From IMG/VR virus record IMGVR_UViG_2617270947_000006: 23,462 nt of DNA. One strand, written 5' to 3'. The notes beneath the pieces are model-generated. The model was not told where the DNA came from. It made no database searches and saw only the letters and a list, made by a program, of their open reading frames with translations. Positions within the stretch are counted from its first letter, which is position 1. Every line of letters starts with the position of its first letter. A program made the position numbers and the translations under genes. This DNA is from a virus (taxonomy: Duplodnaviria > Heunggongvirae > Uroviricota > Caudoviricetes). Below, piece by piece: positions 1-8,159 of the stretch.

Positions 1-60
1 CCCGCCATTAAAACAGAAGCTGAATTTAACGCCATTAAATGGCCTGAGCAGCCACAGTAA
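1..60 (+). CDS. Partial CDS (3' end only): putative tail-fibre assembly (Tfa/U-like) chaperone C-terminus, convergent with the tail-fibre gene
   Basis: Frame 1 is open from window position 1 (PAIKTEAEFNAIKWPEQPQ) and ends at TAA 58-60. The terminal I-x-WPEQP motif matches the conserved C-terminal tail of phage Tfa chaperones as I recall them. The 5' end lies outside the window, so identity is tentative. Confidence 0.3.
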   Translation, partial: PAIKTEAEFNAIKWPEQPQ

Positions 61-63
61 TAA

Positions 64-83
64 AGAAGGCCGGAAGGCCTTCT
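64..83 (-). terminator. GC-rich hairpin between two convergent stop codons; likely intrinsic terminator of the minus-strand tail operon, possibly bidirectional
   Basis: Perfect inverted repeat AGAAGGCC (64-71) / GGCCTTCT (76-83) with a GGAA loop, read directly. On the minus-strand transcript it is followed by UCUUUAUUACU. It lies 8 nt beyond the tail-fibre stop (92-94) and 4 nt beyond the plus-strand stop (58-60). Confidence 0.5.
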
Positions 84-91
84 GAATATCA

Positions 92-973
92 TTATATACT
101 TGCAGCCGTCACCCATGCTCCATTTAACAGATACTGCAACGGCCGGTAATACACGCCGCCGACGTTATCTGCCGTATTCTTACCGACATCCTGTACTTTA
201 ATTCCGGTAAGAACATTGCCGCCCCCCAGATTCAGATCCCAGCTTTCCCATGTTCCGGGCATATGTGCGGTCACCGACCCCAGTCTTATGGCGGTTACTG
301 TTCCTGATGAGATAGTGATATCCTGCGTCCCGTCAAAGGGAACACCATTAATTGTGTGGGCATTTGCCAGCCTGTTCGCGGCAACGGCGGTGCCGTCCGA
401 TGGCAGGGCATTCGCCGCCCTGTTTACCGTTTCCCGTAAACCGACGTTATCGATAAAAGCCCCTTTATCCGGAATGTCTGCGCCGTTCTGCTCCCTGCGC
501 AGGTAACGGTTATCACCTTCGCTTTTGCTGTAAACATCCAGATTATTACGGGCGGTTCCCTTATTCTCCAGGTCGGCGAGATTCTGATCCTTCGCCAGGG
601 CATTAACGTCAGCGGGACCAAGACTGTTTTTTGTGGCAAGCGTCCCCAGACCAAGATAACCACGGGCCAGACGCTGGGCCTCCGCACCGGCATCAGCAAT
701 TTCTTTCAGGTTATTTTTCCGGGAAAAGGCATTCGCAGCGATAATGGCTTTAATGGACAGCGTAAGCTGGTTTAACTGCGCCTTATCCGGCTGAATACTG
801 GCTTCAGCCAGAATATTCAGCAGTTCGGCCTGGAGAATATTCAGCCAGTCCTGACCAATCCAGCTGATACCTTTTTGTCCGTCACCTTCGGTAAACCAGG
901 TGGTGGTATTACTCTGCGCTGGTGCCAGCGCAGGCATATTCGCCACGCCGGAATTATTATCAACATGAAACAT
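92..973 (-). CDS. Phage tail fibre protein (Mu S-like position), 293 aa
   Basis: Last gene of the tail operon. The N-terminus [38 protein letters not shown] is typical of the conserved N-terminal domain of myophage tail fibres. ATG at 971-973 overlaps the upstream stop (TAATG). Confidence 0.8.
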
Positions 974-1533
974 TAAATAGTCTCCTCTTCATGGCTGTTT
1001 GCATACACGTAAATAAACGTCTGCCATGCAGGCTTATAACGGTTCAGAATACATTCCAGCGCACCGCCTTCATAAATACGCAGCGGCGTGAGAATATCAT
1101 CCAGCACATTCATATTCCGGTAGCCGGTTTCACTGTTAATCGTGACAATACTGACCCACTGTGAATCCGGTGATGGCTGAATATCTATTTCATAACCAAA
1201 CTCTGCCGCAAACCGGATATAAAATTCACGGTTAAGAGAGGGTTTCATCCGGTATTTATTCCCGGCATAACGCTGACGCTCCTGAATGGTTGCGCCGGTC
1301 ATATCACATTCCGGTAACCCCAGATAACGCTCCCAGTCTTCCAGCAGCAGACGAGATGAATCAGGAAAACGTTCTGCCAGCATCTGGTTACCGGTCCAGG
1401 AAACACGCTCCGTGGAATGACTGAGGCCCAGGCACAAAGCCGCAAGAACGGATGACGGCCGCTTATCCCATGCCAGCCCATCAGGCAGCAACTGCAACAG
1501 GGCACGCTGATGCGGGGTCAGGGTTACAGCCAT
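973..1533 (-). CDS. Mu gp48-like tail/baseplate protein (P2 gpI-like), 186 aa
   Basis: Size and position between the baseplate J-like gene and the tail fibre match Mu gp48; start overlaps the upstream gene by 10 nt. Confidence 0.75.
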
Positions 1534-2609
1534 GTGATTTCCCCCACGGTCAGCAACTCTGTATCTCCGGCCATCACGGACTTCAGCGGGCTGCGAACTT
1601 CAAAATCCTCCAGTCCTTTCACCCCTGCAACAGCCCGCCAGAATGATGAAGGCAATACAAGTCCACCCGGCCGCGATTCGTTATAAAGCAGGTCCGTTAA
1701 TGCCTGTTTTACGGCAGCCTGATTTTCCGGCGTTTTGGGTACAATCCTGATCTCAAACGCCACCGGCTTATTGGTCAGCTTAAACACGCTGATTGTCGGC
1801 CCAAGTGGCTGACCAACGGGCTGGCCCGTCGCCGGATCATCATGACTGCGGATATAATCCGCCACCCGCTTCACATCACCTTCTCCGGGGAAAATGTCAG
1901 GGTTATTATCCTGAACAAAAGTCACACCAACACTACCCGCCTCAGGCCATTCAGGCTTACACCATGCCCGCGTCACGCCCGGTACTTCCCGTGCCCAGCG
2001 TTCAAAATCATACTGTGTTCCCCCTGATGGCGGGTTCTGTACCCGGAATACCAGCCTGGACAGCAACTCCGGCACCGTTTCCACATCCGCACCACCGGTG
2101 AGTCCCGTGCCGGTGACCGTGGCTGTCTGGTTGATGCCTGCCTGTGGCGTGATAAAGGACAGGCGGGTTCCGGTCGGGGGATTTCCAGCGCGCCCCGCAC
2201 TTTCCGCCTCCACATTAACATTCAGTGTTCCAGCTTTTCCGGTCGCAGAGCCGGTGATGCGGTACACAACACCATCGCTTCGCTGAAGGAGTACGCCTTC
2301 CGTGATCCCTGCATCCGTGGTCAGCATCAGTTGTACCGGTCCGTCAGCGCGGGAAGCCGGTTTACGGATGACACCCCAGAATGCGCAGTGTTTCAGGAGT
2401 TCGGCTTCATCAGCTTCTGTCGGAATTATCTGCCGGGAGATCCAGGCCAGATGTTCATGCTCCTGTGCTGACAGACCCGCCAGTGCATACGCAATGGCAT
2501 TCAGGGTGGTTTCATTCACGCCCGGCTGCGAACCGGGCAGGCGCTGGCTGATATCCTGTTGTGTCTGTGTGATCAGTTGCGCCAGTGGTAAGGGCTGATA
2601 AGGCATCAT
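1524..2609 (-). CDS. Baseplate J-like protein (Mu gp47-like), 361 aa
   Basis: Size and synteny; ATGA start/stop overlap with the gp46-like gene. Confidence 0.8.
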   Translation of the reverse strand: MMPYQPLPLAQLITQTQQDISQRLPGSQPGVNETTLNAIAYALAGLSAQEHEHLAWISRQIIPTEADEAELLKHCAFWGVIRKPASRADGPVQLMLTTDAGITEGVLLQRSDGVVYRITGSATGKAGTLNVNVEAESAGRAGNPPTGTRLSFITPQAGINQTATVTGTGLTGGADVETVPELLSRLVFRVQNPPSGGTQYDFERWAREVPGVTRAWCKPEWPEAGSVGVTFVQDNNPDIFPGEGDVKRVADYIRSHDDPATGQPVGQPLGPTISVFKLTNKPVAFEIRIVPKTPENQAAVKQALTDLLYNESRPGGLVLPSSFWRAVAGVKGLEDFEVRSPLKSVMAGDTELLTVGEITWL

Positions 2610-3043
2610 TCCCCCTTCATATCAGCATAAAAAATCATCGGATGTCTGCTTCCGTCCGGCAGGGTGATTTTCACGGAAAGCGAAAGGCGAGCATGCCCCA
2701 CACGCATGGCATGACATACCACGGATGTGGCAGCACCGCTTTTATGCAGCCACGCCAGCGCTTCATCAGCATAGGCCTGTGCACGGCTGACCACGGAGGA
2801 CAGCGTCTTTTCACGGCTTAACAGCCAGAGACGGGAGCCAACGGGGCGCTCCCGGAAACTGTCTCCCCACCATCCCCGACGGTCACGGGTGCCGTCAGGG
2901 ATTTCATCGGAATCCAGCGCCCGCCTGTCCGTAAACAGTGAAATAATGACCGCAGTCAGCAGGCTGTTATCCGTCAGAAGATCTGCGCCGTTCAGTTGCA
3001 GGGAACCGCAACCCTGATCCCAGACGACAGCAATATCAGCCAT
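2606..3043 (-). CDS. Mu gp46-like baseplate protein (P2 gpW-like), 145 aa
   Basis: Start placed at the internal ATG 3041-3043 (MADIAVVWDQ...) preceded by a GGGAGGA Shine-Dalgarno sequence. The longer track ORF (to 3256) would overlap the upstream gene by more than 200 nt and lacks a ribosome-binding site. Confidence 0.75.
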   Translation of the reverse strand: MADIAVVWDQGCGSLQLNGADLLTDNSLLTAVIISLFTDRRALDSDEIPDGTRDRRGWWGDSFRERPVGSRLWLLSREKTLSSVVSRAQAYADEALAWLHKSGAATSVVCHAMRVGHARLSLSVKITLPDGSRHPMIFYADMKGE

Positions 3044-3650
3044 TCTCTGGTCCTCCCGTTTTGCTGCCTTCACCGTTATCGTGATGCACATGACCTGAAT
3101 AGGTGATCCCGGCAATAACCGCTTCGGACATCGTGAACGTCCCCTGTGATCTTCCGGTGCCGTCAATGGACACATTGCCTTTGACATGCAGGTTCTTATC
3201 CACTGTGACATTACCGGTAAAGTGAGCCTCCGGTGTATCCACCTGAACACCTTCATCGGCGTAAATCTCCAGCGTCTTACAGGTCACAATGATCCGGCCG
3301 TTCTTTGTCAGACGTATACGGTGCCCCTCATGGTGATACACGCCGGTATCTCCGGCGGTAAGTCCGGTCGGGCGACTGCGGCGGTCTTCCACCACAAGCA
3401 CCACGGCCTGATCCCGTTGTCCGCCAGCACAGGCCAGAAAAACTTCCGCACCAGGCAGGGGGACGCTGATTTGCCCGTACTGCTGGGGGCGTTCAACGTC
3501 ATCAAAGGTTTCACCATCCATACCGGTGATTTGCACATTCTGGATTTTCAGCGTGTCCGTTGTGCCGGTCAGTACACCACGCCCGAACAGCAGACGAACA
3601 CCCCGCATCACGGGGGCCAGAAGGCGGCTGATGACTTCGTCATTCATCAT
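3036..3650 (-). CDS. Baseplate assembly protein V-like / tail spike-hub (Mu gp45-like), 204 aa
   Basis: Size and position after the gpP-like gene. Confidence 0.75.
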   Translation of the reverse strand: MMNDEVISRLLAPVMRGVRLLFGRGVLTGTTDTLKIQNVQITGMDGETFDDVERPQQYGQISVPLPGAEVFLACAGGQRDQAVVLVVEDRRSRPTGLTAGDTGVYHHEGHRIRLTKNGRIIVTCKTLEIYADEGVQVDTPEAHFTGNVTVDKNLHVKGNVSIDGTGRSQGTFTMSEAVIAGITYSGHVHHDNGEGSKTGGPENG

Positions 3651-4764
3651 TGAATTTAATCCCCTGTTTTTTCATCTGTGCCCGCACGAAGGCGTCCACG
3701 TCACCCGCATTTCCGCTTCCGCTGTTTCCCGGCTCTGCCGGAACAATAAAGCCGTCACGGGGTGCCAGAATCAGACGGGTGGTTTCGCCGTGATTTGCAT
3801 CCAGCGAAAACTCCACCTGACAGACAAGAAGATCACGCTCTTCCACTCCGGTGCGGGGAGCCGTGACAGCCGTCAGCAGGTTGATATCCCACAACTGGCC
3901 GTTCTCCCGAAACCAGTGCCGCACGGTGGCTGTCAGGCGCACAGAGCGGGCAACCGCCCGGCGCATTTCCCGGACAGCCCTCTGGCGTGCACCGTCTGCA
4001 TCAACAGCATGATCCGCCAGCACAATTTTCGGTCTGTAACGGTGGATGGCACTGTCTGTCACCGTACCAACGGGTGCGGCCAGCGTTCCGGCTGTCAGTG
4101 CATCCCCGGCATGACCACCACCACGCCCGTGCCCCCGTACACGGTATTCACTGTGGCGCAGACGGTGATCCACGTTGTGATCCAAATCCAGCAGATTTTC
4201 GCCCAGCGTCAGCGTGTCGCCACGCTGACTGCCGGCCTGAGTGAAAACCAGTTCACCGGCGGCATTACTGGTTACCAGGACGCCTCTGTGTCTCGCGGCC
4301 CGTGTCAGCGCATCTGCCACGGTTTCTGAGTTTTCCAGTGTGAAGGTGGAAAAGTGCCGGGCTGCCGTTGCATCATTTACCTGCCAGCGCACCGTGACCC
4401 CGAACGGAGCACACAAATCTGAAGCAATGTGCTCCAGCGTGCGGTTCCTCCACTGGCTGCCCGGATGAATGGCTGAACAGTCCACCAGGTCACCGGTTTT
4501 ATCCCGTCCGCTGAGCGTGATCTGAAAACGCGTGGCGCTGATGCGCTGCCGGACCTGATCCAGCCAGCCAGTGATCACAGGCTGACCGTCAATGCGCAAT
4601 TCCAGAGACTGACCGGCACGGACGGATGACGGAAGGCGTACACCGGGCATCATTACCCCCAGTTCAAAGGAGCCCGCCAGATGTTCAAGAGAGCGACGAA
4701 CACTCACCGTCAGCCAGCCGGAAAAAATCTCACCGCCCAGATACAGTTCAACCCTGCTGCTCAC
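3640..4764 (-). CDS. Mu gpP-like tail protein (P2 gpD-like), 374 aa
   Basis: Size (Mu P is about 379 aa) and position after the N-like gene; overlaps neighbours at both ends. Confidence 0.8.
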   Translation of the reverse strand: MSSRVELYLGGEIFSGWLTVSVRRSLEHLAGSFELGVMMPGVRLPSSVRAGQSLELRIDGQPVITGWLDQVRQRISATRFQITLSGRDKTGDLVDCSAIHPGSQWRNRTLEHIASDLCAPFGVTVRWQVNDATAARHFSTFTLENSETVADALTRAARHRGVLVTSNAAGELVFTQAGSQRGDTLTLGENLLDLDHNVDHRLRHSEYRVRGHGRGGGHAGDALTAGTLAAPVGTVTDSAIHRYRPKIVLADHAVDADGARQRAVREMRRAVARSVRLTATVRHWFRENGQLWDINLLTAVTAPRTGVEERDLLVCQVEFSLDANHGETTRLILAPRDGFIVPAEPGNSGSGNAGDVDAFVRAQMKKQGIKFNDE

Positions 4765-6097
4765 TAATCACCTCCACTGAATGGCCTCCGGGAATGAACA
4801 GCGGATCAACAATACCGTTACGGCGCACAAAACGTTGCCAGCCGGTACTGTTCCCGGTGGCACGGTACAGGGTCACCAGTGCAGGCTCGGTGGTACGTAC
4901 AGTCACTACTGTTGCACCGGGTAGCTGAACTCCCCGTGTATTCAGATCCTCTGTCAGTGCCAGTCTGGCATCACGAAGCGTCAGCGCCGTGGCGGTATAC
5001 CCCTGCCCGGACAGTGTCATCACCTGCCGTTCGAGCGCTTCGCTTAAGTCACGGTTAATGCGCTGAAGATCAACTGAACTTTCCAGCCAGACAGGCCAGG
5101 TACGGTGGGCTGCGTCACTGTCCGGCAGGGTTTCCTGACTGAGAACCTGATCCAGCAGTTTTCCCACGGTCTGTGCCTGGGCCACCACGGCAGCACTCTG
5201 CATTACCGCCCGTATCAGACGAATATTCTTTTGTGCTGCCGGTGTCAGACCGATGAGAGTCTGCGGATTATCCTGCTCATCCAGCACGTAACGCAGGGAA
5301 GATAATGTCCTGTACAGTTGCGGCATTCCCTGAGAGACGGCGGATGTCGTCCGGCCGATACTGCCTCCGGGCCGGGTATTCAGGCCTCCTGAAGACAGTG
5401 ACGGCAGCGATGGCAGGGTGATCAGGGCACTGAAAAGCCCCGCAAAAGATGAGGCCATGCGGGAAGGTGCTGTCAGTAATGCCGTGGCATTCCCTTTCAG
5501 CGCCGTGAACGTGGCAGTAAAGGCACTGATATCCTGTACAATCCCCATGCCGGAAACGGCATTTTCCAGGGCGGACACCTTATCGCTGATGGTTTCGGTC
5601 ATTGCCTGGACATCGTGCATTCCGTCAGAAATCACCGTCCAGCCCGCTTCCAGGGTTTCAAAAACCTTCCCGAGCGCGGTGGTACTCTTCTGCTCCAGAA
5701 TGGCGGCCGTGTCCTGTGTGACAGCAGGTGCGGTATCATCACTTACCGGCGTGACATTAATGGTGAACTCAACCACGCCCTGTTCAGCAGCGTTATAACG
5801 ACTTTCAAAGCTGTTTATCAGCACATTTAACGTGCCGTAATCCGGGTGAAGCAGCTCCCCGGCACCGGGAGCACGAAGGGCATCACGCAGACGATTTCGC
5901 TGTGTCTGAACATCATCCCCCATCACAAGTACACTGAACGTAAATTCAGCCAGTTTAGGTCCCAGATCGTCTGCACCACCGGTTTCCCGTAACGGATATT
6001 CCCGACGGACAATGTTTCGCCCGCCACGTTCGCGCTGCTCACGCCAGACGAGGAACGGCACACCACGGAACGCACCACGACCGTCACCAGAGGCCAT
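4748..6097 (-). CDS. Mu gpN-like DNA circularisation protein, 449 aa
   Basis: Start moved to ATG 6095-6097 (MASGDGRG...), which is preceded by GGAGGG 5 nt upstream; the track start at 6118 has no ribosome-binding site. Position directly after the tape measure gene. Confidence 0.8.
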   Translation of the reverse strand: MASGDGRGAFRGVPFLVWREQRERGGRNIVRREYPLRETGGADDLGPKLAEFTFSVLVMGDDVQTQRNRLRDALRAPGAGELLHPDYGTLNVLINSFESRYNAAEQGVVEFTINVTPVSDDTAPAVTQDTAAILEQKSTTALGKVFETLEAGWTVISDGMHDVQAMTETISDKVSALENAVSGMGIVQDISAFTATFTALKGNATALLTAPSRMASSFAGLFSALITLPSLPSLSSGGLNTRPGGSIGRTTSAVSQGMPQLYRTLSSLRYVLDEQDNPQTLIGLTPAAQKNIRLIRAVMQSAAVVAQAQTVGKLLDQVLSQETLPDSDAAHRTWPVWLESSVDLQRINRDLSEALERQVMTLSGQGYTATALTLRDARLALTEDLNTRGVQLPGATVVTVRTTEPALVTLYRATGNSTGWQRFVRRNGIVDPLFIPGGHSVEVISEQQG

Positions 6098-8159
6098 AAT
6101 TCCCTCCGTTCCAGACATTCACATCCAGTCCGTGACCGGACGTGTCATCAATATCAATACTGCGAGCCTGCCACCCTTCCGGGGCAACCAGCTCCACACG
6201 GGCAGAGGCTTTTTGTACCGCCTGTCCACTGCTTTCATCATCACTGCCCCGTAATTTCTGCCAGGCTTCAGTCAGCCATCCCCCCAGATAGTTACCGAGA
6301 TAGCTGCCCACCGTAGAACCAACGGCAATCCCCACAGGTCCGGCTGCCGCCCCCAGCGCACCACCGGCAATACTGCCTGCAAGAGAGCCGACCGCTTCTC
6401 CCTTGTCTGTGGCACTGGCGCTGCCATCCAGCAGAACCGGGGCTGCCATCGCGCCAGCCCACAGGGCACCTCCACCCAGCCGGCCGGCCAGTCCACCGGC
6501 ACTGCGGAAAAAGCCGGAGAAACGCCCCAGCCCCATGCGGCTACCGACAGACGAAAGTAACCCACCGGCGCGCCCCATCATGCGCCCCCAGAACCCTGCC
6601 CCACCAGAAGAGGGAGACGGTGGCACTGGGGACGGTGGCAGGGGAGGCGTGACCGGTCTTCCGCGCCCCGGTCCGCGTTTCCTGCGGCCCCGCCCCTGAC
6701 GTCCGCCTGAGGATGTATCGGTCGCGCCGGTGCCGGACAGTCCTCCTGTGGGCCAGTTTGTTACAAGTACTGGCTGAACGGCTGCCGGATTTACCCCGGT
6801 AAGAAAGTTTATAAAACGTTGCCCCCGTCCCTGAGATGTGCCTGGTGGTGTTCCGGCCGGAGGAGAGCGCCGGAAAGGTGAGGTCAGGAAGGCCGCCGCT
6901 GATAATCCGTATCCCAGCAATGCAGCACCCGGACGTATAATCCCCGTTCCGACAGCCCGCGCCATTTTCAGGGCACGGGTGGCGAGATACATGTACAGCA
7001 GGTATTTCGCGGCGGTCTGTGCCCCCTGACCAATGCGATCCAGCGCATCACCATAGCCCGCATCCCGCAGAGCCTGAAGCGTGTCGCGTACCTTTCTGAT
7101 CGCCTGATAAAACCCTGTCACTGCATCACGGGCATACTCAAAGCCCTGGTTCATGGCTGATGCCGTGCTTTCCGCCAGGGAATGGTAACTGCCATCAGAT
7201 TTGGCACTGTCAACCCATGAAAGAAATCCCCTGAGATTACCCTTCAGTTTTTCAAATGGCCCACTGTCCATCACATCCCGGGCAAACTGGTCCCAGACGT
7301 CACCCATCATGGCCGTCAGGCCACTCCAGGAATTCATTGCGTCCTTTTGTGCTCCCCTGGCCTGTTCCGCCAGCGTCTGAAATAACAGGCGAATACTGTC
7401 CGGCCCAAGCAGCCCTTTTTCACCAAGTTTTCTGACCACTTTCTGGTCCACACCCAGACGATCAGCCAGCACGCGGTAGGCATTAATGCCGTAGGTGGCA
7501 AGAATATTTGCATCCGCCGCCTGAATACTGCCTCTTGCATACATCTGTTTCAGTTGCAGGGATGCCCCCTGTGCATCGGACAGTGACCAGCCGCCCACGG
7601 CACCCTGATCCTGAAGCATGGTGACAAAATTTCGGGCCTCCCTGTCACTCATACCAAAGCCCAGACTGGACGTATATTCCTGCATGACGCCAGCCAGCCC
7701 CCAGGTGGTTTCCTTCGCATTCTGTATTGCCCACCTGCGGACATCATCAGTTTTCGCCCGATCCCCTTTGTAAAGGGAGTTCAGGCGAATCATATAGGTT
7801 TCCATCTCCGCTGCCGGGCGAATAAATCCCCGGTTAAAGCCATATACAGCAGCACCACCGGCCAGCATTCCGTAAAGATTGCTGATCCGCCCGATGGTGC
7901 CGGTAATACTGCCCTGAAGACGGTCAAAATCAGAAGTGACATGGCGGATACTGCCCCGCACCCCGGCCAGCGTGCGCTGCATCCTGCTTCCGAGTACATC
8001 TGTTTCCTGCCCGGCACGGCGGGCAGCATTTCCCAGGCCACCCAGCCCCGCCTGGCCGGAGCGTGAGAATGCCCCCAGCTCCTGTGACCACTGGCGGGAT
8101 TTGGCTGAGATATTGCCGAGCAAATCAACTATCAGAGATGCTCTGAGATTTCGGGCCAT
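6084..8159 (-). CDS. Tail tape measure protein (Mu gp42-like), 691 aa
   Basis: Largest tail gene, located after the tube and chaperone genes. Contains a Gly/Pro/Arg-rich low-complexity stretch (GRQGRGRRKRGPGRGRPVTPPLPPSPVPPSPSS) and Gly/Ala-rich segments typical of tape measure proteins. Confidence 0.85.
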   Translation of the reverse strand: MARNLRASLIVDLLGNISAKSRQWSQELGAFSRSGQAGLGGLGNAARRAGQETDVLGSRMQRTLAGVRGSIRHVTSDFDRLQGSITGTIGRISNLYGMLAGGAAVYGFNRGFIRPAAEMETYMIRLNSLYKGDRAKTDDVRRWAIQNAKETTWGLAGVMQEYTSSLGFGMSDREARNFVTMLQDQGAVGGWSLSDAQGASLQLKQMYARGSIQAADANILATYGINAYRVLADRLGVDQKVVRKLGEKGLLGPDSIRLLFQTLAEQARGAQKDAMNSWSGLTAMMGDVWDQFARDVMDSGPFEKLKGNLRGFLSWVDSAKSDGSYHSLAESTASAMNQGFEYARDAVTGFYQAIRKVRDTLQALRDAGYGDALDRIGQGAQTAAKYLLYMYLATRALKMARAVGTGIIRPGAALLGYGLSAAAFLTSPFRRSPPAGTPPGTSQGRGQRFINFLTGVNPAAVQPVLVTNWPTGGLSGTGATDTSSGGRQGRGRRKRGPGRGRPVTPPLPPSPVPPSPSSGGAGFWGRMMGRAGGLLSSVGSRMGLGRFSGFFRSAGGLAGRLGGGALWAGAMAAPVLLDGSASATDKGEAVGSLAGSIAGGALGAAAGPVGIAVGSTVGSYLGNYLGGWLTEAWQKLRGSDDESSGQAVQKASARVELVAPEGWQARSIDIDDTSGHGLDVNVWNGGNYGLW

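Follow-up and report, generated by a model that had tools for sequence, protein, structure and literature searches.

Din-family invertase switches that exchange the C-termini of tail fibres are known from the P1 C segment and the e14 P segment (Cin and Pin respectively), and the closest described system is the G segment of phage Mu, in which a constant part of the fibre gene (Sc) is combined with either of two variable parts, each with its own chaperone gene (Sv-U and U'-S'v), next to the invertase gene gin. A tail fibre assembly gene (tfa) follows each tip in the e14 segment, in the P1-like phage MH422554, where two tfa genes converge, and also in a related prophage (L061); the fibres of the P1 and e14 systems are much longer than those considered here. 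Prophage Sp18 of Escherichia coli O157:H7 Sakai was already noted to carry an invertible host-specificity region distinct from that of Mu; its DNA is packaged efficiently and Mu-like particles are made (PMC2669165). Here we analyse a 23,462-nucleotide stretch of viral DNA (Caudoviricetes; IMG/VR record IMGVR_UViG_2617270947_000006), hereafter the window, at the left edge of which a tail-fibre gene converges on a tfa gene. We conclude, with a probability of about 0.88, that positions 1-973 of the window are the right-hand end of an invertible host-range switch of the Mu G-segment type, and that the window starts inside the invertible segment.

Comparison with the Mu G segment

The locus shares with Mu the gene order after gp47 and gp48 (Table 1), an invertase gene just past the segment, and com and mom further on. 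Residues 1-198 of the 293-amino-acid fibre protein are 47% identical to residues 1-191 of Mu S (E 1e-49), and a profile of its distal domain (tip A) and related tips aligned with the C-terminal 71 residues of Mu S (hhalign 99.5%, E 2e-22). The fibre matched the Mu S chains 5yvq and 8ju3 in the PDB and, end to end, phrog_1833 'tail fiber protein' (E 6.7e-141), the full-length match implying that about 300 amino acids is the normal length of this fibre family. The shortness of the protein against the roughly 500 amino acids of Mu S, which the initial annotation had found atypical, is real (Mu S has 504), and by alignment the predicted fibre is the N-terminal part of Mu S plus its distal knob, minus about 210 shaft residues that would lie between Mu S residues 191 and 430.

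Other differences from Mu are the size of the segment (1.3 kb here, approximately 3 kb in Mu) and of the variable parts (about 116-119 against about 335 amino acids, in fibres of about 295 and 504 respectively), the length of the inverted repeat (about 150 bp here, 34 bp in Mu), and additional genes (DUF6645/SASA esterase, DUF1378 and DUF826) between the invertase and com/mom. A single tfa stands here in place of U and U', so that the fibre gene faces the chaperone gene in one of the two orientations. The locus belongs to a kind of system already known, and the single-chaperone layout makes it a variant rather than a new kind; no published description of that layout was found in a limited full-text literature search. 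Sp18 belongs to the same prophage family, its type of cassette (L011) having Sc, the sites, one tfa and the invertase, but with tips A2/B3 instead of the A1/B1 of the window and a tfa allele that differs mainly in its C-terminal half. Among the readings first offered for the window, an uncharacterised variable-tip arrangement came nearest, in that two tips, one tfa and active inversion are present. The Sp18 inversion region had been noted already.

The convergent gene had been likened to Tfa/U chaperones from its C-terminal motif, and this likeness holds for the complete gene. Translated in frame 1, window positions 1-60 give PAIKTEAEFNAIKWPEQPQ and a stop codon (ending AIKWPEQPQ), and these positions are identical to the 3' end of a 173-amino-acid gene in E. 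coli 23CRST047 (L001 7539-8060). With the Pfam profile PF02413 (Caudo_TAP) the full protein scored 69.2 (E 4.8e-19; cut-off 22.1). It also matched phrog_136 'tail fiber assembly protein' (E 4.7e-56) and shares 28% identity with Mu U over its full length. The stop codons of fibre gene and tfa are 31 bp apart, no co-oriented tfa follows the fibre gene and, as first described, a hairpin occupies that position instead. It has an 8-bp stem with five G-C pairs and a 4-nucleotide loop, folds at -16.6 kcal/mol (z = -3.5, 51-nucleotide context) and was classed as terminator-like on the fibre strand by a consensus scan. The T-run beside the hairpin is weak on both strands (tail TTATTACTGT), and terminator-like sites in the region were no more numerous than in shuffles. 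The same fibre/tfa layout occurs in more than 200 complete E. coli genomes; an assembly artefact is ruled out by its presence in hundreds of complete genomes.

The fibre gene is composed of three parts, in that a gix-like site in codon 177 separates a constant N-terminal part (codons 1-177) from a variable tip. Within the 1317-bp segment are tip A, one opposed tfa and, upstream of tfa, a promoterless tip B, with a Gin-family invertase beyond the second site. In orientation A, that of the window, the late operon makes Sc-tipA (293 amino acids) and tfa lies antisense; in orientation B it makes Sc-tipB (296 amino acids), and tfa comes next, which restores the usual S-U order. The flip is probably catalysed by the adjacent serine invertase, and the two tips may confer different host ranges, by analogy with Mu.

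Crossover sites and natural inversion

Positions 1-1600 of the window match 233 E. coli records, and are 99.7% identical to E. coli 23CRST047 (L001, in which position 8001 corresponds to window position 1), with 5/1600 mismatches and none in positions 1-60. The initial annotation had proposed to look upstream of position 1 for a second fibre tip, an invertase gene and crossover sites, and all three are present in near-identical genomes. Upstream of the position equivalent to window position 1, L001 encodes the rest of tfa, a fibre C-terminal fragment annotated as 'missing N-terminus' on the same strand as tfa, and, on the strand of the fibre gene, a 190-amino-acid 'recombinase family protein', followed by a DUF6645 gene, DUF1378, DUF826, com and mom. 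The recombinase has a resolvase/invertase domain (PF00239, E 1.6e-51) and HTH_7, and its identity to Mu Gin is 74%. Gin/Din-type systems have a Fis-dependent recombinational enhancer in the 5' part of the invertase gene; in an alignment, the initial 220 bases of the gene look broadly similar to those of Mu gin and of the Sp18-type gene.

A repeat search in L001 gave inverted-repeat arms at 7119-7204/8366-8451 (93%) and 7218-7267/8303-8352 (84%), and two 26-bp sites lie at the outer ends of this inverted repeat of about 150 bp. The window holds exactly one gix-like site (0/100 shuffles had any), which matches Mu gixL, as read from the Mu genome (TTATCCAAAACC-TC-GGTTTACAGGAA), at 22/26 bases and has the same central dinucleotide. 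Its central TC and its inner half-site, GGTTTACGGGAA, recur in the partner site (L001 7114-7139, TTCCTGAAAACC-TC-GGTTTACGGGAA), which adjoins the invertase gene. The crossover codon (177) aligns with codon 170 of Mu, the annotated boundary of the G segment, where Mu has the homologous motif FIQNLGLQET. Flipping the segment in silico produced an intact gene for 296 amino acids (Sc plus tip B) with tfa 51 bp downstream in the same direction, the classical S-U order, and naturally flipped genomes encode this 296-amino-acid gene. The spacers around the single tfa measure 31-40 bp and 51-121 bp, leaving no room for a second tfa.

The segment is intact, active and invertible, with two alternative tips and one tfa. 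Two E. coli genomes of 5,189,944 bp (FORC_029) and 5,189,943 bp (NCCP 13983) show 0 differences over 12,750 bp after inversion of the 1317 bp between the site cores, and because the two arms of the repeat begin to differ 18 bp in from the cores, the exchange is placed at the sites and not anywhere along the repeat. The same exact inversion at the core was found in two more cassette types (pairs L053/L058 and L047/L056). The two orientations could in principle arise by RecA-dependent recombination instead of a serine invertase, the repeats being about 150 bp long with 84-93% identity, but we regard this route as improbable in the extreme: in three independent cassette types the exchange falls in the outermost stretch with the site core, and every polymorphism of the repeat moves together with the inner segment. 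The sites, moreover, match Mu gix and adjoin the gene of an invertase with 74% identity to Gin. The suggestion, made from the window alone, of a rearranged or deleted host-range segment is wrong for the window, whose segment inverts precisely in nature; a deletion derivative does exist in other strains (see below).

Both orientations are common in public genomes. Of complete E. coli genomes, 24 have the window-type junction in full and seven the flipped one, the corresponding figures for the Sp18/O157-type junction being 184 and 16; among IMG/VR loci, at least 17 were in orientation A and eight in orientation B. Several points tell against an active switch at this locus. The genome counts do not represent independent events, O157 lineages being clonal; no direct inversion was observed in this sample; and, as the window itself stops 60 bp into tfa, what lies beyond (tip B, second site and invertase) is deduced from near-identical genomes.

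Two E. coli strains, TOE17 (NZ_CP069093.1) and DLI.5a (NZ_CP103972.1), carry two prophage copies each, one per orientation. Many IMG/VR contigs (L043-L045, L049-L052, L054 and L055) end within fibre codons 169-224, at the crossover site or inverted repeat, as would be expected if short-read assemblies break where both orientations are present.

Tip A and the frozen derivatives

Tip A is under purifying selection. Compared with a diverged copy (L010, 91% nucleotide identity), it gave a synonymous divergence (dS) of 0.47, a non-synonymous divergence (dN) of 0.043 and a ratio of the two (omega) of 0.09; the copy used in the dN/dS comparison was STEC2017-197, in place of SCU-171, in which the fibre gene is fragmented. 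Together with the matches to Mu S and phrog_1833, this ratio marks the fibre reading frame as a genuine gene.

A set of derivatives appears frozen in orientation A (seven complete E. coli genomes and seven IMG/VR loci; Table 1). A deletion whose junction is common to all of them has removed the left site, nearly the whole of tip B and some 165 codons from the start of the invertase gene; tip A and the convergent tfa have been kept. They were found in E. coli M1/M3/M18, CI5, S1-CAM-01-A and JE86-ST02/ST05, in four disrupted host genes (flgL, a xanthine dehydrogenase gene, bcsA and the citF region). Four different insertion sites imply that the tip-A-only phage kept transposing and infecting, and hence that orientation A is not an 'off' state.

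These observations bear on a reading of the locus as a decayed two-chaperone G segment, in which the U gene after tip A would have been lost and orientation A would be non-infective ('off') or tip A close to a pseudogene. Relatives with two tfa genes do exist (L061, Mu and the P1-like phage), so that a one-tfa layout would most simply come about by loss, and some copies, such as SCU-171, are degraded. We nevertheless consider decay very unlikely, given the omega of tip A, the spread of tip-A-only derivatives as active phages into four different host genes, the efficient DNA packaging and Mu-like particles of Sp18 (PMC2669165), and the retention of the one-tfa layout across at least five tip/tfa allele combinations and in a Citrobacter braakii prophage with a 472-amino-acid fibre.

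One tfa between two tips

Every locus of the prophage family that we examined has one tfa between two tips, and no locus has two; the tips are all paralogous members of a single distal-domain family. In orientation A, which is that of the window and the commoner of the two, tfa lies antisense to the late operon. At something close to even odds, we tentatively take the single tfa to encode a chaperone for both tips, in which case it has to be expressed independently of orientation. In orientation A it would then be read from its own promoter or from one outside the segment, convergent with and antisense to the late tail operon, and the switch would change the receptor-binding tip while one generalist chaperone is kept. 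Between cassettes, the tips diverge by about 50%, but conservation of the N-terminal, fibre-binding half of Tfa is about 80%, a pattern that suggests such a generalist. In a P1-like phage, a fibre tip with 52% identity to tip A has a co-oriented Tfa directly after it, 34% identical to the Tfa of this locus; elsewhere, tips of this family are accompanied by a Tfa (e.g. Mu S-U and P1-like), which favours the use of the convergent Tfa by tip A.

The frozen derivatives favour it as well, for tfa is intact in 15/15 frozen loci, with omega of 0.10-0.23 among alleles. Arguments on the other side concern both these alleles and the expression of the gene. The dS of frozen tfa reaches 0.43, exceeding the divergence of about 5% in the adjacent non-coding junction, and the alleles in frozen copies may have been imported by recombination, which leaves the purifying-selection argument for tfa only suggestive. 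A consensus scan gave no sigma-70-like promoter reading into tfa in orientation A, and the regions upstream of tfa differ between cassette types.

A competing possibility, which we think less than probable though by no means slight, is that tip A folds and trimerises with no Tfa, or uses a chaperone from the host or another prophage, and that tip B is the sole client of tfa; the initial annotation had likewise suggested a fibre needing no chaperone in cis. Inversion would in that case exchange a chaperone-free fibre for a chaperone-dependent, possibly Tfa-decorated one, and back. The antisense position of tfa in orientation A, with no promoter-like site into it, fits this possibility, as does the absence from the window-type tip A of a 9-residue segment (TQSxADxRY) found in the other tips and in Mu S, and orientation A, being the commoner (24:7 and 184:16), is clearly viable. 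Yet the 9-residue segment is present in the Sp18-type tip that occupies this slot, the distal-domain family of tip A includes the tips of Mu S, P1 and P2, which have Tfa, derivatives without tip B and invertase keep tfa intact in all 15 loci under the omega values given above, and the Tfa N-terminal half is conserved far beyond the tips. The constant association of the tfa3 allele with tip A2 was rejected as evidence of partnership, since the variable 3' half of tfa adjoins tip A and linkage explains it.

Upstream of tfa of the 'tfa2' type, at a distance of about 70 bp, lies a 21-bp palindrome, CTGAAATA-TGCGT-TATTTCAG (L010 5450-5470; L012 2449-2470), which is kept in both invertible and frozen versions, and the frozen version has a perfect TATAAT about 140 bp upstream of tfa and pointing to it. 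Palindrome and TATAAT are possible, putative regulatory elements. No common motif was evident among the Mu Pmom region, the com-upstream region of the prophage and the three kinds of tfa-upstream region.

Distribution of the fibre and of the one-tfa layout

The C. braakii prophage (L013, ATCC 51113; Mu-like) resembles the window locus in that just one tfa, convergent with the fibre gene, separates the fibre tip from an inverted S'v, after which comes the invertase. It differs in its longer fibre, in a crossover further into the gene, in a Tfa of 229 amino acids and in that an A2-like tip has tfa after it. There are apparently three gix-like repeats in this prophage (L013 7819-7896, 9780-9856 and 10190-10223) and only one tfa, and the repeats suggest more than one possible inversion, i.e. 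a putative small multiple-inversion system.

No cultured free phage with this short fibre was present in the collection searched. The sole 'phage' records with the fibre, LC727881.1 (Stx2c) and LC727895.1 (Stx1a), are Shiga toxin (Stx) phages that carry an inserted Mu-like phage of the family. A protein word-index search with the tip returned 16 short, mostly partial proteins, which shows the diversity of the tips. Matches in Snodgrassella and Photorhabdus, from a search of one genome per species (eight loci), were set aside, only the INGVPFDG-type repeat having matched.

Layout of the window and neighbouring genes

The features of the locus are collected in Table 1. Upstream of the gp47/J-type gene, a mechanically called open reading frame of 216 amino acids (window 2606-3256, minus strand) runs into the end of the baseplate V gene upstream of it and has probably been called too long; its RefSeq equivalent, of the Mu gp46 family, is 438 bp with a start further in. 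The DNA circularization gene (Mu gp43-type) is intact in the window (4748-6118), and in the 23CRST047 prophage it is interrupted by ISEc43, of the IS66 family (L001 13830-16246). Between the invertase and com/mom of the latter prophage (L001 4336-6390) a 684-amino-acid protein is encoded that combines a sialate O-acetylesterase domain (SASA, PF03629) with a DUF6645 C-terminus, followed by DUF1378 and DUF826; Mu has nothing there, and the gene resembles the esterase 'moron' genes of Stx phages.

Table 1. Coordinates of the fibre switch and adjoining genes in the window, and loci of the frozen derivatives
Feature	Position	Strand	Remarks
tfa 3' end (last 19 codons and stop)	1-60	+	= L001 8001-8060; remainder of gene upstream of the window
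Hairpin, terminator-like	64-83		Between the convergent stop codons; AGAAGGCC-TTCC-GGCCTTCT, G+C-rich
Tail-fibre gene, Mu S homologue, 293 amino acids	92-973	-	'A' orientation (constant part and tip A)
Tip A, distal domain (codons 225-293 and stop)	92-301	-	Within the invertible segment; no co-oriented chaperone gene
Right arm of the imperfect inverted repeat (~150 bp)	303-451		Encodes residues 178-224, including a 12-residue motif common to both alternative fibres
gix-like 26-bp crossover site	431-456	-	TTATCGATAACG-TC-GGTTTACGGGAA; central dinucleotide at 443-444
Constant part of the fibre gene (Sc), codons 1-177	445-973	-	Outside the invertible segment; ends at the crossover in codon 177
Mu gp48-type baseplate wedge gene (YmfQ family)	973-1533	-	Directly upstream of the fibre gene, as in Mu; PF10076 (Phage_Mu_Gp48) E 2e-22; RefSeq annotation of L001
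gp47/J-type gene	1524-2609	-	Mu-like tail/baseplate operon
Frozen derivative loci	L012 2235-2538; L026, L027, L029-L033; L098-L100		

Implications for the prophage family

For annotation, the 'hypothetical' or 'phage tail' proteins of 293-303 amino acids and the 'partial' tail proteins next to a recombinase are two states of one phase-variable fibre gene; the point applies to hundreds of E. coli genomes, including O157, and contig breaks are to be expected at this place. The prophage family also offers a natural test of the specificity of, and need for, Tfa, with its homologous tips, one chaperone, a commoner state in which the chaperone gene is antisense, and locked derivatives that keep the chaperone. 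If one Tfa does serve both tips, the locus would be a handy minimal module for host-range engineering, and the shared chaperone would represent a minimal design for Din-type host-range switches, one that is also seen in Citrobacter.

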